Assembly: GCA_963667465.2 (NCBI GenBank)
Contig: CAXXDN010000002.1
Span: 64,001 to 128,000 of the forward strand
Length of the DNA: 64,000 nt
Direction: 5' to 3'
Origin: Dehalococcoidia bacterium
GTDB lineage: Bacteria > Chloroflexota > Dehalococcoidia > UBA2979
Positions 3,171-21,527 of the stretch are shown piece by piece. The notes beneath the pieces were generated by a model that saw nothing but the letters and a program-made list of their open reading frames with translations, had not been told where the DNA came from and did no database searches. Position 1 is the stretch's first letter. Every line of letters begins with the position of its first letter. The translations under genes were made by a program, and so were the position numbers.

Positions 3171-4808
3171 ATGACAGCGCGGCTGATCGCACTGCCGGCT
3201 CGCCGTGCGCCGCTGATCGGCCACGGCTGGCCCCCGGCGGTGATCCTGCTGCCCGGCTTGCTGGTCGGCGCACTCTGCGCCATCCCACCGATCTACCTGC
3301 TGGTCCGCGCCGGACAGTCGCCCGAGGCCGCCTGGGAAGCCGTCGCCACGAGTTCGACGCTCGGCCTCGCGCTGCGCACGGCTGCCTTCGCTGCGGGCGC
3401 GACCGCGATCGCGACAGCGATCGCGCTGCCGCTCGCCTGGCTGACGACTCGTACGGATCTGCCCGGGAGGCGCGTGCTGGGGATTCTCGCCGCACTGCCG
3501 CTCGCCGTGCCGTCGTACATCGCCGCGATGCTGGCGGTCTCCGCCTTCGGGCCGACCGGGCTGCTGCAGGACATGCTCGCACCGCTCGGCGTGGAGCGGC
3601 TGCCCTCGATCTACGGCTACCCGGGCGCGGTGCTGGTGCTCGCGCTGTTCACCTACCCGTACCTGCTGCTGACGCTGCGCCCGGCGCTGCTCGGCCTCGA
3701 CCCGCGCCTCGAGGAGACTTCGCGCGGCCTCGGCTCCGGGCGCTGGACCACGTTCCGCCGGGTGGTGCTGCCGCAATTGCGGCCCTCGCTTGCGGCGGGC
3801 GGGCTGCTCGTTGCGCTGTACGCGATCTCGGACTTCGGGGCGGTGGCGCTGCTGCGCTACGACACGCTGACGAGGGCGCTGTTCGTGCGCTACGAGTCCG
3901 GCTTCGACTTCTCGGGCGCCTCGGCGCTCGCGCTCGTGCTGATCGGCATCGCCTTCACGCTCATCGCGATCGAGCTGTGGGCGCGCGGCGAGCGCCGCTA
4001 CCACAGCGCGCGAGGCGGCTCGCGGCCGGCCTCCGTCGCGCCGCTCGGCCGCTGGCGCTGGCCGGCGTTCGGGCTGGTGCTGGCGCTGCTGGCGTTGGCG
4101 CTGGTCCTGCCGCTTGCGCTGCTCGGCTTCTGGCTTGTGCGCGGGCTGGCGGCCGGGGAGGCGCTGCACGGCGTGGGCGGCGCGGTGCTGGACTCGCTGA
4201 CGGCGGCCGGTCTCGCCGCGCTGGTCGCGGCTGCGGCCGCGATCCCCGTCGCCGTGCTCTCGGCGCGCCATCGCCGCTTCGCGCTGACGCAACCGATCGA
4301 GCTGCTGAGCCACAGCGGCTTCGCGCTGCCGGGGCTGGTCGTCGCGCTTGCGCTTGTCTTCGCGGCGCTGCACAGCGAGTCCATCGCCGGCGGGCTGTTC
4401 GGCGGGTGGCTGTACCAGTCGCCGGGGTTGCTGGTCGCCGCCTACGCGCTGCTCTTCCTGCCGCAGGCGCTCGGCGCTACGCGGGCCTCGCTGCTGCAGA
4501 TCAGCCCCTCGATGGAGGAAGCGGCGAGCGGACTGGGCCGGCGTCCCTGGCAGGTGCTGGGCTCGATCACGCTGCCGCTCGCCAGCCGCGGCATCGCCGT
4601 CGGCATGGCGCTCGTCTTCCTCACCACGATGAAGGAACTGCCCGCGACCCTGATCCTCAGCCCGATCGGCTTCCAGCCGCTGGCGGCGCAGGTCTGGGGC
4701 GCCGCCAGCGAGGCGTTCTTCGCTCGCGCCGCGCTCCCGGCGCTGCTGCTGGTGCTGCTCTCCGCCCTCCCGCTCGCACTGCTCACCATCTGGAGGCGCG
4801 ATGCCTGA
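3171..4808 (+). CDS. Fe3+-type ABC transporter permease (FbpB-like, two BPD_transp_1 domains)
   Basis: Two EAA loops ('LEETSRGLG', 'MEEAASGLG'), 'MKELPATLIL'; true start inside the long 1839..4808 ORF. Confidence 0.88.
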   Translation: MTARLIALPARRAPLIGHGWPPAVILLPGLLVGALCAIPPIYLLVRAGQSPEAAWEAVATSSTLGLALRTAAFAAGATAIATAIALPLAWLTTRTDLPGRRVLGILAALPLAVPSYIAAMLAVSAFGPTGLLQDMLAPLGVERLPSIYGYPGAVLVLALFTYPYLLLTLRPALLGLDPRLEETSRGLGSGRWTTFRRVVLPQLRPSLAAGGLLVALYAISDFGAVALLRYDTLTRALFVRYESGFDFSGASALALVLIGIAFTLIAIELWARGERRYHSARGGSRPASVAPLGRWRWPAFGLVLALLALALVLPLALLGFWLVRGLAAGEALHGVGGAVLDSLTAAGLAALVAAAAAIPVAVLSARHRRFALTQPIELLSHSGFALPGLVVALALVFAALHSESIAGGLFGGWLYQSPGLLVAAYALLFLPQALGATRASLLQISPSMEEAASGLGRRPWQVLGSITLPLASRGIAVGMALVFLTTMKELPATLILSPIGFQPLAAQVWGAASEAFFARAALPALLLVLLSALPLALLTIWRRDA

Positions 4809-17834: not shown

Positions 17835-17885
17835 CGTGCGAGGCGAGGCTAGCAGCGGCTTGCGGGGCTGACTACGGCGAGGGCG
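17835..17885 (+). repeat. 51-bp direct repeat, copy 2 (spans the LRR gene stop codon)
   Basis: Identical to 17214-17264. Confidence 0.92.
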
Positions 17886-18100
17886 CTTCTCGCCCTCGGA
17901 CGGCGCGGCGGACGCCGGCGCAGGCGAGTAGCAGCGCGAGGAGCGCGAGGCGCGGGGCCGCGCCGCCCCCGTCGCGTGGTGGCGGGAGCAGCCCGGCGTT
18001 GCCAGGCCTGGGGAGTTCGGGCGCCGTCTCGCAGAACCGTAGACCGGGGCCGGGCAAACCGCTGTACTCCACTGATTCCAGGCCAGGCGGGATACACCCG

Positions 18101-18676
18101 GTCAGCTGATTGTCTGAGAGCGACAACCAGATCAGCTCGACAAGGTTCCCCAACTCACGCGGGATTTCACCCGTCAGCTTGTTGTTGTTGAGGAACAGAT
18201 GCGCGAGGTTGGCAAGCTTGCCGAGTTCGCGCGGTATCTCGCCGGTCAGCTGATTATCTGAGAGCGACAACCATGTCAGCTCGGCAAGGTTCCCCAACTC
18301 ACGCGGGATTTCACCCGTCAGCTTGTTGTTGTTGAGGAACAGATACGCGAGGTTGGCAAGCTTGCCGAGTTCGCGCGGTATCTCGCCGGTCAGCTGATTA
18401 TCTAAGAGCGACAACCATGTCAGCTCGGCAAGGTTCCCCAACTCACGCGGGATTTCACCCGTCAGATTGTTGTTGTTGAGGGACAGATGCGTGAGGTTGG
18501 CAAGCTTGCCGAGTTCGCGCGGTATCTCGCCGGTCAGTTGATTGCCTGAGAGCCACAACCATGTCAGCTCGGCAAGGTTCCCCAACTCACGCGGGATTTC
18601 ACCCGTCAGATTGTTGTTGTTGAGGGACAGCTGCGCGAGATTGGTAAGCTTGCCGAGTTCGCGCGGTATCTGGCCG
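18101..18676 (-). repeat. Four near-identical 144-bp tandem units (pairs of LRRs)
   Basis: Units begin gtcag at 18101, 18245, 18389, 18533; 72-bp periodicity continues to about 18920. Confidence 0.9.
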
Positions 18677-19013
18677 GTCAGATTGTTGTTGGTGAGGTCC
18701 AGATGCTCGAGGTTCTCGAGATTGCCCAACTCACGCGGGATTTCACCCGTCAGATTGCTTCTCGAGAGGTGCAACAGCCCGAGGTTCTCGAGATTGCCCA
18801 ACTCACGCGGGATCTCCCCGATCAGATTGTTCCCCCCGAGCTGCAGTGAATCGAGCTTGGTGAGGTTGCCGAGTTCACGCGGGATCTCACCGGTCAATTG
18901 GTTGTCAGGGAGGCTGAGCCACTCCACACGGCCGTCCTCGCCGGTCAGAACCCCGTACCACTCGCCCAGCGGCGCCTCACTAATCCAGTTCCATTTGTTC
19001 GGTGATTGCACAC

Positions 19014-19042
19014 TTGACACAGGGTTGATCCTCCACTAGGAT
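19014..19042 (+). promoter_or_regulatory. Sigma70-type promoter in left TIR, directed at the transposase
   Basis: TTGACA (19014-19019), 17 nt, TAGGAT (19037-19042). Confidence 0.7.
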
Positions 19043-19176
19043 GGCTTCATGGGAGTACGCACACCGGCCAGCCGTTCGAGTTCCGCTGCGGCTTTCTTTC
19101 CGAACAGCATCTCGATCACGTCATGGTCGGTTGTGTTCTCGTCTACCTTCTTCGGCAGCTTCGGGGGCTGAGTCAT
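19036..19176 (-). CDS. 46-aa micro-ORF divergent from and overlapping the transposase start (MTQPPKLPKKVDENTTDHDVIEMLFGKKAAAELERLAGVRTPMKPS)
   Basis: AGGAGG 9 nt upstream, located in transposase codons on the opposite strand; helical-looking sequence; below the ORF-track cutoff. Confidence 0.55.
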   Translation of the reverse strand: MTQPPKLPKKVDENTTDHDVIEMLFGKKAAAELERLAGVRTPMKPS

Positions 19177-20065
19177 GGCAACGAACCTCCTAGATCTGAT
19201 GGACCGCTATAGCAGCGACGACGCTTGCCGCGACCTGCTCGAAAACCTGCGCTGGCCGAACGGCGTGGTCTGCCCTCGCTGCGGCTCACTCGGCATCAGC
19301 ACCATCAAAAAGCGCCGCGTCTACGACTGCAACGACTGCCGCTACCAGTTCACCGTTACGGCCGGCACCATCATGCACGACTCCCACCTGCCGCTGCGCA
19401 AGTGGTTCGTCGCCGTCTACCTGATGTGCGAATCCAAGAAGGGAGTCAGCGCCCTTCAGCTTCACCGCACGCTCGGTGTGGCGCGCCGGACCGCCTGGTA
19501 TCTCTCTCACCGCATCCGCGAGGCGATGGCCAACGACCCGCTCGAAGGCCCTACCCTGCTCGGCGTCGTCGAGGTTGACGAGACACTGGTGGGCGGCAGG
19601 AAGCGCGGGAAGGGCCACGGCTACCGCGGGAACAAGTTCTGGGTCGCAGGCGCTATCCAGCGCGACGGGCAGGTGCGCCTCGCACAGATCCCAAACGTGC
19701 GGCGCAAGACCCTGCACGGCTTCATCGAACAGACCGTGCGCGACGAGGCCGAGGCGATCTACACCGACGAACTTAAGTCCTACCTCGGCATCGGCGACGA
19801 CGACACGCGCCACGAGACGGTCAACCACGGCGCGGACGAGTGGGTCGTGGGCGACGCGCATACGAACTCGATCGAGGGCGTATGGTCGCTGTTCAAGCGC
19901 TCGATCATGGGGAGCTTCCACAAGGTCAGCGTGAAGCACATTGACCGCTACCTCTCCGAGCTGGAGTGGCGCTTCAACAACCGGGGCAACGAACACATCT
20001 TTCTTGACACGCTGCGGCGCATCGTCCGTACCGAGACCATGACCTACCGGGAATTGGTGGCCTAG
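19175..20065 (+). CDS. IS1595 family transposase
   Basis: Zn ribbon CPRC...CNDC, HTH 'GVSALQLHRTLGV', 'VEVDET', 'IYTDE', 'HTNSIEGVWSLFKR', 'YLSELEWRFN'. Confidence 0.96.
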   Translation: MATNLLDLMDRYSSDDACRDLLENLRWPNGVVCPRCGSLGISTIKKRRVYDCNDCRYQFTVTAGTIMHDSHLPLRKWFVAVYLMCESKKGVSALQLHRTLGVARRTAWYLSHRIREAMANDPLEGPTLLGVVEVDETLVGGRKRGKGHGYRGNKFWVAGAIQRDGQVRLAQIPNVRRKTLHGFIEQTVRDEAEAIYTDELKSYLGIGDDDTRHETVNHGADEWVVGDAHTNSIEGVWSLFKRSIMGSFHKVSVKHIDRYLSELEWRFNNRGNEHIFLDTLRRIVRTETMTYRELVA

Positions 20066-20490
20066 TCCCAGCCGGTGATCGTGGCCGAACAATCCACGTG
20101 AGAGATGTAGCCAGTAACGAAAAGCTGATGCGCGTCTTGCGAGCGGCCCTGGAAAACTCCCACGACGTACTCCGCGATGTAGCGCCAGTTGTTCCCACTC
20201 AGGTAGCGAACGGTTGTCGCGCGCGTATCCAGGCTGAGCCTGACATCGGGGTAGCCCCCAGCGGCGTACCCGACTCGTAACGCCTCGATCAGAGCGGCGT
20301 CGAATTCGAGGCTTCGTCCGTCGATGAGGCAACGCTCGATTGGTAATGGAGTGGGTGCCGCAGTCGGGGTGCGAGTGGGCAAAGCATTGGGAGTGGGCGT
20401 AGGCGTGGCGATTGGCGTCGCGCTCGTGCAGGCCGTGAGAGTGAGGGCGAGAGTGAGGGCGAGAGCGAGAGCAAACGCGATCGGGCGCAT
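20062..20490 (-). CDS. IS passenger: predicted lipoprotein with Pro/Thr linker
   Basis: Lipobox LTAC, PTPTP linker, small two-Cys domain; GGAGG RBS; overlaps the transposase stop. Confidence 0.75.
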   Translation of the reverse strand: MRPIAFALALALTLALTLTACTSATPIATPTPTPNALPTRTPTAAPTPLPIERCLIDGRSLEFDAALIEALRVGYAAGGYPDVRLSLDTRATTVRYLSGNNWRYIAEYVVGVFQGRSQDAHQLFVTGYISHVDCSATITGWD

Positions 20491-20571
20491 GGCCCCTCCC
20501 TGTGGCGGACGGTTGACCGCCCACGATAGAGTGCTCTGTGCTACACGCCATGTTGTTCTCAGCCGCCTTCT

Positions 20572-20928
20572 TCATGGGTCGGAAGGATCGCGCCACCAAA
20601 ATTTCCACCAGCGACGCCCAAAAAGATGGTCAATCTGCTGACCCAAATCGTCCATAAAATCAGCAGTCGAGTCGCACCGGGGAGGATGCTGCTCCCCTCG
20701 CCTACCTTCCGAGAGCGCCTTCTCCATAATGTTACGAAAGCCTTCTCGATCTTTAGATTTTTCGCGCTCATGGGTCCATTGTAGGGCTGCGACGATTACA
20801 GCAGTCACAACGAACGCTCCGATCGCCAACCGTACAAGCAGGTTTACGTCGGCGGTGGAGCCCACGGCCAAGACCTCAATTGCCGCTGTGCCTAGACCGC
20901 TCAATGAAGGCATGATGACCCTGTGCAT
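20572..20928 (-). CDS. IS passenger: hypothetical membrane protein with Trp-rich C-terminus
   Basis: Lower GC than host; TM 'LLVRLAIGAFVVTAVIVAAL'; ends 'RRWWKFWW'; start 6 nt after the right-TIR -10. Confidence 0.55.
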   Translation of the reverse strand: MHRVIMPSLSGLGTAAIEVLAVGSTADVNLLVRLAIGAFVVTAVIVAALQWTHEREKSKDREGFRNIMEKALSEGRRGEQHPPRCDSTADFMDDLGQQIDHLFGRRWWKFWWRDPSDP

Positions 20929-20934
20929 CGAAGC

Positions 20935-20963
20935 ATACTGCCGTCCGCTCTATCCTGTGTCAA
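20935..20963 (-). promoter_or_regulatory. Sigma70-type promoter in right TIR, directed at passenger genes
   Basis: TTGACA (20963-20958), 17 nt, CAGTAT (20940-20935), 6 nt, ATG 20928. Confidence 0.55.
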
Positions 20964-21527
20964 GTGTGCAATCACCATTTGTTCACCCAGTTCGGCCCGT
21001 CGGTCGCAAGGTAGAGCGCGATTAGCGCCTCGCGGTCCGAGGCGACCGAGCCGCCCGCGGTCTGCGCCTGCGCGCTGCGGGCGCCGAGGGTCAGTGCGGC
21101 CACGAGGATCGCGACGAGAGCCGCGGCTCGTGCAGTCCTCGCGCGGGTGGTAGGCCCTCGACTCATGCGCCTGCCTTTACGGCTTCGGGGAGGCCAGACT
21201 AGCAGAGCGGCAGCGGTACGGTTCCTGGCAGCGGGGCTACGCGTGGGCCGGCGAGGACTCGCTCACTGTTGGCGGGGGGGCCGAGCCCCCGCCGGCTTCC
21301 GCGTCGCGGGAGGAGGGACCGCGTCTTTGCCGCTGTCCCGTCCGTCGCGGCGGTTCGTCCACCTCGGACGGACGGGCGCGACACTCCTCTGACGACGCGC
21401 ACCCCGCTTTGGTTCCCGGCCCCTCCCACGAGGCCGAACCAGGCCGTCGCGGTGGTATACAGGACGGCGGAATCCGGACCTCCGCCGGTCCGGTTGCCTC
21501 GATCGATGCGCGCGATGGGAGGGGACG

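Follow-up and report, generated by a model that had tools for sequence, protein, structure and literature searches.

A 64,000-nucleotide (nt) stretch of the Dehalococcoidia bacterium assembly GCA_963667465.2 (contig CAXXDN010000002.1, forward-strand positions 64,001 to 128,000; hereafter the window, with positions counted from its first letter) contains a complete IS1595-family insertion sequence (IS) of 1976 base pairs (bp) at 19001–20976, as delimited by its terminal repeats and target-site duplication. Between the left repeat and the transposase gene, the same DNA holds two small open reading frames (ORFs): on the minus strand, a conserved gene for a small basic protein that starts where the transposase starts, and on the plus strand, an upstream ORF (uORF) that runs from a predicted transcript start to a stop codon just ahead of the transposase. 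We read this arrangement as the left-end control module of an intact IS1595-family element, coding on both strands, and place the probability of that reading at roughly 0.6. The packing had been pointed out in an earlier note made from the letters of the window, which proposed that uORF coupling drives transposase translation and that an antisense transcript or small protein represses it. Comparison with related elements supports a compact module, not chance ORFs.

Two Small Reading Frames Fill the Left End of the Element

The element and its left end comprise the following features; protein lengths are in amino acids (aa).

18993–19000, no strand: left copy of the 8-bp target-site duplication, ATTTGTTC; the same 8 bases lie beyond the right end.
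19001–19023, plus strand: left inverted repeat (IRL), 23 bp, a 100% inverted match to the right repeat (own-genome search and alignment).
19014–19019, plus strand: −35 hexamer TTGACA, within the IRL.
19037–19042, plus strand: −10 hexamer TAGGAT, 17 nt after the −35 hexamer (promoter scan).
19036–19176, minus strand: small basic protein gene, 46 aa, conserved; 2 nt of its start codon are shared with the transposase start.
19049–19171, plus strand: uORF, 40 codons, in frame with the transposase; TGA at 19169–19171.
19163–19167, plus strand: transposase Shine–Dalgarno, GGGGG here, inside codons 4–5 of the minus-strand gene and the last codons of the uORF.
19174–19177, no strand: CATG palindrome with both divergent start codons, present in 53/56 distinct left ends.
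19175–20065, plus strand: IS1595-family transposase, 296 aa (Pfam domains).
19186–19191, minus strand: AGGAGG Shine–Dalgarno of the small gene, within transposase codons 4–6 (N-L-L).
20954–20976, minus strand: right inverted repeat (IRR), 23 bp, pairing perfectly with the IRL.
20977–20984, no strand: right copy of the duplication, ATTTGTTC, identical in sequence to the left copy.

The earlier note had read the letters of this junction correctly. The CATG palindrome supplies both ATGs, at 19175–19177 for the transposase (plus) and at 19176–19174 for the 46-aa ORF (minus), and the antisense Shine–Dalgarno (CCTCCT on the plus strand) lies 9 nt ahead of the minus-strand ATG, as described, in transposase codons 4–6. 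The 40-codon plus-strand ORF is likewise present in full, from the ATG at 19049, in the transposase frame, to the ending TGA-GTC-ATG. Its ATG lies 6 nt past the −10 hexamer, at the predicted transcript start, and the promoter on which the note's predicted start rests is the sole promoter-like site in 18900–21100 (10/12 matches, versus 0.4 ± 0.5 in shuffles). Because the minus-strand stop (CTA on the plus strand, 19036–19038) overlaps the −10 hexamer and shares its TA, the space from the −10 box to the transposase start is wholly filled by the two small ORFs, which share third codon positions. The note's term for the region, a transposase leader, is too narrow: the region is the whole span from the −10 box of the IS to the transposase start.

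The transposase places the element within its family. Residues 14–58 match Zn_ribbon_IS1595 (PF12760, E = 1.1e-17) and residues 128–268 match DDE_Tnp_IS1595 (PF12762, E = 1.7e-35), both 23-bp repeats begin GGTGATT, and the repeat consensus is kept in relatives. PMC8101967 defines the family by an N-terminal Zn_ribbon_IS1595 in all groups but IS1016, a DDE_Tnp_IS1595 domain, an 8-bp duplication, and repeats starting GG; the element in the window has the zinc ribbon, the DDE domain, the 8-bp duplication, and the terminal GG.

Relatives Retain the Small Gene and Constrain Its Protein

To define the comparison, one genome per prokaryotic species was scanned, in which 247 stretches encode a relative of the transposase; the best 80 of these 247 were kept as 79 loci, with transposase identities of 63–95%. 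Two loci lacking the transposase 5′ end (L017 and L043) were left out, and the remaining 77 loci, taken together with the window, comprise 56 distinct left ends. The left repeat was locatable in 49 left ends and the right repeat in 37 left-end representatives. The peptide alignment omits L072, L081, L033, L066, L027, and L062, in which the small ORF is displaced, broken, or not CATG-started; the remaining 50 left ends yielded 48 distinct small peptides. The subgroup occurs in metagenome-assembled genomes, whose record titles name Chloroflexota (Dehalococcoidia among them), Acidobacteriota, Gemmatimonadota (including Longimicrobiales), Gammaproteobacteria, Binatia, and unclassified bacteria.

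The minus-strand gene is conserved across this set. The earlier note had proposed testing the linkage of the 46-aa peptide to IS1595 transposases and held that loss of both small ORFs and of the antisense Shine–Dalgarno in homologs would speak against a module; tblastn matches to the peptide adjoin a transposase start in nearly all loci, and these features persist across the IS1595 subgroup. The small gene starts in CATG in 53/56 distinct left ends. A Shine–Dalgarno core stands 4–12 nt before its ATG in 42/56, versus 8.6% of positions antisense to the same transposase genes, and the transposase Leu5 codon, which builds this core, is CTC in 32/43, compared with 16.1 expected from the genes' own codon usage. 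Most relatives encode a protein of 46–62 aa (two reach 74 aa or more), and the 48 peptides align through an N-terminal part rich in Lys/Arg and a core whose FGKR motif has an almost invariant G-K. Substitutions in this core are conservative (I/L/V, K/R, D/E), and differences per codon position are 0.476, 0.410, and 0.602 for first, second, and third positions of the minus-strand gene.

Linkage also holds when the search is run from the small protein. Among 301 genomes of the window's phylum, 5 contain a small-protein match (the window's own genome and 4 others); of the nonself matches in this sample, 4/5 lie directly beside an IS1595 transposase that is divergently oriented, whereas the fifth, at E = 6.5e-4, is likely to be spurious. 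Three of the four linked transposases are only 54–55% identical to that of the window. Three elements at this distance (L088, L089, and L091) show a variant junction, in which the two starts lie 12 nt apart and two back-to-back Shine–Dalgarnos form one small palindrome; their small protein has diverged, with a basic N-terminus and an R-I-F-P-P core.

The small-protein core is also kept in rearranged elements, where another ORF has been inserted before the transposase and the start overlap is lost. The inserted ORF in L072–L074 and L081 is an extra minus-strand ORF of 74–119 aa between the small gene and the transposase, and L081 carries, upstream, a relic of the old junction with its Shine–Dalgarno, TGA, CATG, and first transposase codons. 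Element length among relatives, measured between repeat pairs, ranges from 1150 to about 3460 bp, and variable passengers lie between the transposase and the right repeat. The shortest relatives (1150 and 1165 bp) consist of the repeats, the small ORF, and the transposase and nothing else, so the two-strand module belongs to the core element and not to its cargo. Copies within the same genome remain similar over the ~180–210 nt preceding the transposase ATG and diverge farther left.

The ratio of nonsynonymous to synonymous substitution rates (dN/dS) on each strand, a comparison that the earlier note had proposed, leans toward the minus frame (0.51 versus 0.63 for the plus frame; minus lower in 361/480 usable pairs) and is a weak discriminator. 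Because third codon positions are shared, dN/dS barely separates the frames, and we used resampling tests instead, in which synonymous codons were redrawn (300 resamplings) and each frame was scored by mean BLOSUM62. With only the plus-strand peptide constrained, the minus frame is expected to score 0.712 ± 0.025 (maximum 0.771); the observed score is 1.665.

These results bear directly on an account in which only the plus strand matters, as a leader peptide, a uORF, or a 5′ untranslated region, and the minus-strand ORF is its untranslated shadow. Such an account would fit the failure to find a promoter for the minus-strand transcript in the 300 nt preceding the small gene, and the N-terminal M-x-Q-x-P of the minus-strand protein coincides with bases of the transposase start, the stop, and the Shine–Dalgarno, so that this motif could be dictated by the plus strand. 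It does not accommodate a minus-frame score more than twice that expected under plus-only constraint, the conservative substitutions in the core, or the recurrence of the minus-strand ATG and Shine–Dalgarno. The core is kept where it stands apart from the transposase start, and gene callers predict the small protein in many assemblies (192 database proteins). We therefore consider a purely plus-strand account very improbable and hold with high confidence that the 46-aa minus-strand ORF is a real, conserved, and so far unnamed small protein gene.

A further account, in which neither frame is translated and conservation reflects either subterminal sites in the DNA that the transposase binds or an RNA leader with a structure, is already disfavored, and we give it the lowest standing of all. 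Subterminal binding sites are common at IS ends. A solo left-end remnant elsewhere in the same genome (G000:C2:898669-898793; L002, about 1468–1614) retains 78% identity over 127 nt to window positions 18991–19117; it consists of the repeat and about 100 nt of the small-gene region, and a stop truncates the frame just before the conserved core. Against this account stand the three-base periodicity of the stretch, with DNA that has diverged far while amino acids are kept, and the lack of a conserved fold: RNAalifold returns 0 pairs across 30 leaders, the leader in the window folds no better than shuffles (z = −0.83), and Rfam gives no match to it at E up to 1.

The uORF Is Conserved in Its Start and Stop

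The plus-strand frame is conserved in a different manner. A −35 hexamer with at least 5/6 matches followed 16–18 nt later by TAnnnT is found in 42 of the 49 left ends with a located IRL, and an ATG follows the −10 by 5–8 nt in 42/49, at exactly 6 nt in 35 of them; across the same loci, an ATG at this distance follows just 9.6% of all TAnnnT hexamers. The 42 uORFs so defined, 40–57 codons long in relatives, mostly end at the transposase start: 35 stop 0–9 nt before its ATG, 3 stop 8 nt past it, and 4 stop earlier. Over all 56 left ends, TGA stands exactly 3 nt before the transposase ATG in 39, and a stop stands within 3–9 nt in 46. The window, with its TGA 3 nt before the ATG, thus has the close stop and start of a translationally coupled ORF pair. 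The transposase Shine–Dalgarno that precedes the stop has a GGAG/GAGG/AGGA core in 39/56 (GGAG in most relatives), or 51/56 when GGGG/GGGA is counted.

Overlap with the minus-strand gene allows the stop to be evaluated at sites where that gene is indifferent. The uORF TGA requires a T ending codon 2 of the minus-strand gene, where the choice is synonymous; this codon ends in T in 36 of the 37 peptides with Gln/His at residue 3, compared with 4.3 expected from own codon usage, and it is the most conserved T wobble in the minus-strand gene. The TGA is therefore held at the nucleotide level. Immediately ahead of the conserved His, the codon has a final C in 21/21, which avoids a plus-strand TGA within the uORF; in the Asp subset of these codons, GAC is used in 18/18, with 13.2 expected. 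In L088, L089, and L091, at 54–55% transposase identity, a uORF again runs from the predicted transcript start, here to a TAA that overlaps the transposase start at their different junction. Of the plus-strand ORF to which the earlier note drew attention, it is thus the start position and the stop 3 nt ahead of the transposase ATG that are conserved, and both fall where the minus-strand gene is unconstrained or admits a synonymous choice.

Weighing the Two-Strand Reading

Several results weigh against a control module that uses both strands. The elements counted are kin, the 48 peptides forming 7 clusters at 50% identity and 37 at 70%, and the counts above are accordingly not independent. The uORF is open in 38/48, with 37.1 expected from the composition of the minus-strand protein, so there is no excess of open frames; for elements in which the uORF is out of frame the chance of being open is also high (0.59–0.83), which makes openness uninformative. 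The uORF peptide scores a mean BLOSUM62 of 0.864, compared with 0.793 ± 0.017 when only the minus-strand protein is constrained. A search of the 300 nt ahead of the small gene found no conserved sigma-70-type promoter, with hits that are weak and scattered (10/52). Synonymous variation in transposase codons 1–40 is not reduced (0.48–0.49 versus 0.448 overall), and these codons show no synonymous constraint beyond the Shine–Dalgarno. The 30 leaders share no consensus RNA structure, and with an unstructured start region and a Shine–Dalgarno of its own, nothing in the sequence forces the transposase to depend on the uORF. Finally, no RNA run occurs among the sequencing runs that carry the locus, and the transcript start, the minus-strand transcript, and translation are predicted.

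The small excess of the uORF peptide is calibrated by the shadow frame of the transposase gene, which scores 2.82 against an expectation of 2.659 ± 0.01: the plus-frame excess is no larger than this control and reflects relatedness. By the resampling and this control, amino-acid selection acts on the minus-strand protein and not on the uORF peptide, which is conserved only to the shadow-frame level.

An alternative view is that only the minus-strand gene is functional and the uORF is incidental, its ATG and TGA being kept for other reasons, such as the choice of initiating nucleotides or the make-up of the spacer between Shine–Dalgarno and AUG. The unselected peptide and the unexceptional openness both fit, as do the shared third codon positions, which lead one to expect long antisense ORFs here, and a transposase start that is unstructured and served by its own Shine–Dalgarno. 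The evidence at the two ends of the uORF points the other way. The predicted +1 carries a full ATG, and not merely a purine, in 42/49 left ends, at a place where the minus-strand peptide is otherwise unconserved, and the same promoter–ATG geometry starts real long ORFs at the right end of the element (see below). The TGA depends on a T that is synonymous for the minus-strand gene and far commoner than expected, the codon before His invariably ends in C, and a uORF recurs in the 54–55% relatives despite their different junction. We regard an incidental uORF as rather unlikely. On balance we favor a uORF that is a translated leaderless spacer ORF, with start and stop under selection and the sequence between them not, and hold this with somewhat better than even confidence.

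A hairpin that would hide the transposase ribosome site, by pairing with the complement of the minus-strand Shine–Dalgarno, was considered as a candidate and rejected (mean z = +0.52, n = 52; 4% below −1).

The Right End Repeats the Promoter–Start Geometry

Two passenger ORFs lie between the transposase and the right repeat.

20062–20490, minus strand: passenger ORF, 142 aa, with a lipoprotein-like N-terminus and no family (ORF list, Pfam scan).
20572–20928, minus strand: passenger ORF, 118 aa, hydrophobic in its N-terminal half, with an ATG placed 6 nt downstream of a −10-like CAGTAT.

CAGTAT stands 17 nt after the TTGACA of the right repeat, an inward promoter-like geometry on the minus strand at 20926–20976; the 118-aa passenger that follows matches no Pfam family at cut-off. 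The geometry recurs among relatives. The right repeat carries a −35 with at least 5/6 matches in 32/37, and in 26/37 relatives, counting ORFs of at least 60 aa, the right end presents TAnnnT, then a start codon 5–8 nt on, opening an ORF of 71–298 aa. These right-end passengers usually have N-termini that are basic and then hydrophobic, and by BLAST they fall into 17 groups and not into one family. Since these genes leave no room for a Shine–Dalgarno, the element family would appear to use leaderless starts, and the right-end geometry supports a leaderless translation of the uORF.

Minimal passenger-free elements provide a complementary view. In L063, L070, and L080 (~1150–1165 bp), the right −35 is degenerate (TTGTTA, TTGCTT) and the left end keeps TTGAC; this degeneracy in elements that have no passenger to express suggests that the repeats keep TTGAC as part of a promoter and not as a binding site of the transposase.

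The cargo itself is varied. The stop of the 142-aa passenger overlaps the transposase stop by 4 nt. In L004, which is 95% identical, a similar lipoprotein-like ORF lies at 3551–3907 on the plus strand, showing that cargo has been rearranged between close relatives. Downstream of the transposase, one relative (L029–L030) carries a 473-aa minus-strand passenger that, judging the translation by eye, is DNA methyltransferase-like with an HNH-like C-terminus.

The element has inserted into a minus-strand leucine-rich-repeat (LRR) gene (Pfam LRR families), separating an N-terminal signal-like piece from a repeat-rich piece. When the element and one copy of the duplication are removed by hand, the two halves (17872–19000 and 20985–21166, minus) are in frame. 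Perfect repeats, an intact duplication, and in-frame LRR halves together point to a recent insertion. DNA contigs from 4 runs in 2 studies carry the locus with zero differences and confirm the insertion; none contains a joint across the element, i.e., no empty site. The transposase is single-copy in its own genome. Beyond the window, 8-bp duplications also flank L005, L019, L025, L049, and L057.

The Minus-Strand Protein Has No Named Relatives

A single-sequence search of 1.84 billion representatives with the small protein returned 1 relative. A profile built from 46 members reached 192 database proteins at E up to 0.001, for which the only name given is "hypothetical protein." None of these 192 profile-found proteins has a Pfam domain, and a Pfam scan of the 46 members gave no family at cut-off, with a weak DUF3683 match in 9/46 (best E = 0.0018). 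The PDB holds no sequence match at E up to 10, Foldseek with the small-protein model gave nothing at E up to 0.001, and the ESM Atlas returned only unnamed clusters of 47–50 aa (score 0.88). A search for longer, fused forms found 4 proteins, with no domains.

AlphaFold2 models the small protein as an extended basic arm followed by helices at residues 17–25 and 27–37 (mean predicted local distance difference test score 80). The profile and structure searches above matched it to no known small DNA-binding regulator fold (helix–turn–helix, ribbon–helix–helix); the model is that of a monomer, and a dimeric ribbon–helix–helix stays conceivable. On average the peptides are 55 aa long with a net charge of +4.4 and about 5.4 Lys/Arg among the first 15 residues. 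Across the 48 peptides, Tyr makes up 0.1% of residues and Trp does not occur. A stop in the uORF frame can arise in two ways, one of them through Tyr codons; the scarcity of Tyr could reflect selection for an open uORF or the plain make-up of a short basic protein.

A Proposed Control Module

From the sequence we infer a transcript start, leaderless translation, coupling, antisense interference, and a role for the protein, which would combine as follows. A promoter whose −35 lies inside the IRL would start the transposase messenger at the uORF ATG or within 1–2 bases of it. Ribosomes would load without a leader and translate a uORF whose sequence is immaterial, terminating at a UGA placed between the transposase Shine–Dalgarno and the AUG 3 nt downstream. 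Transposase initiation would thereby be tied to uORF termination, probably by coupling or reinitiation; the earlier note had the uORF drive transposase translation, and the arrangement allows either driving or damping.

On the opposite strand, the module would produce a basic protein of ~46–60 aa, with a Lys/Arg-rich N-terminus and two short helices around FGKR. By geometry, any transcript of the small gene would pair with the entire leader and start region of the transposase messenger, so that synthesis of the protein should work against synthesis of the transposase. Such a transcript may begin at the right-end promoter and run through the passengers and antisense to the transposase gene, or it may enter from beyond the element or arise at weak promoters. 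Judged by position, the small protein probably regulates transposition by binding the element ends or the transposase.

A more far-reaching version of this module is a two-way switch, which we consider a tentative proposal with the odds against it. It would consist of two translated, mutually antisense messengers from opposite strands of the same 140 bp, unlike described transposons. The leaderless uORF would act as a birth certificate: Only transcripts from the element's own promoter would carry a 5′-terminal AUG and so deliver ribosomes to the transposase start. Minus-strand transcription, entering by way of the passengers from the right-end promoter or from neighboring host genes, would pair with the transposase messenger, blocking it, and at the same time yield a new class of small transposition regulator. 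Were the switch real, the element would sense the direction of transcription across itself and transpose only in the absence of transcription that enters from outside.

Relation to Known Systems and Meaning for the Family

Insertion sequences limit transposase by antisense RNA, frameshifting, inhibitor proteins, and hidden ribosome sites, and the left end described here can be compared with several of these. In IS10/Tn10, facing promoters produce the antisense RNA-OUT against RNA-IN. The present element would share with it opposed, overlapping transcription units at the transposase-proximal end, with an opposite RNA that covers the ribosome-binding site and start codon; they differ in that the opposite strand here encodes a conserved protein, the complementarity would extend over the whole leader (at least 126 nt), and a facing promoter was not found within 300 nt. 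IS1 InsA and IS911 OrfA are small end-binding regulators encoded on the transposase strand, which share sequence with the transposase by frameshifting and carry a helix–turn–helix. Like them, the protein described here is small and basic and is encoded between the left repeat and the transposase, with a predicted transposase promoter partly in the left repeat; unlike them, it is encoded antisense to the transposase messenger, and searches of Pfam and of solved structures gave no match.

The plus strand invites comparison with more general mechanisms. Short leaderless ORFs ahead of genes are a general bacterial mechanism, as is translational coupling where a stop lies close to the next start. 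The uORF resembles these in its predicted 5′-end AUG and its stop within the spacer between Shine–Dalgarno and AUG, and differs in that the transposase start region is free of the occluding structure that would make coupling obligatory. Passenger genes also have precedents, in transporter IS and in the longer variants of the ISPna2 and ISNwi1 groups. The relatives compared here likewise vary in length and in their passengers; what sets them apart is that the passenger beside the right repeat has a repeat-borne −35 and a predicted leaderless start.

The IS1595 family is large and has relatives in eukaryotes (Merlin); its founding description is said to be that of Siguier and colleagues in 2009. 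As an ISfinder family it comprises the ISPna2, ISH4, IS1016, IS1595, ISSod11, ISNwi1, and ISNha5 groups. Its members are described with a single transposase gene in PMC8101967, and from that description the present subgroup departs, having a conserved divergent small gene and a uORF and, in most members, passengers as well. The element in the window thus carries a second gene on the minus strand and two passenger ORFs, and its transposase is still inside the IS1595 family. The module is absent from three distant plasmid IS1595 elements (38.0, 36.7, and 40.4% transposase identity); in the plasmid search, the best of 503 matching records is 43.4% identical to the transposase of the window.

The earlier note knew of no named equivalent in IS1595, and searches of Pfam, the PDB, protein databases, and the literature agree. 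The full-text literature yielded no published account of such a module, although an earlier mention in the founding family description or in ISfinder notes is possible. Nor did it yield a report of this uORF stop–start arrangement for a transposase or of its packing antisense to a protein gene, and nothing was found on expression control in IS1595.

The small protein represents a new, uncharacterized family that is in tight linkage with a transposase and counts at least 192 database clusters. Annotation pipelines call it "hypothetical" or miss it, and the single relative reached by sequence compared with the 192 reached by profile illustrates how easily it escapes. The two small ORFs also offer a natural case of overlapping antisense frames, in which the constraint on each strand can be read at the free sites of the other. 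For the IS1595 family, the left end would represent a new control layout, in which a second gene and a predicted leaderless uORF are packed on opposite strands at the end of an insertion sequence.

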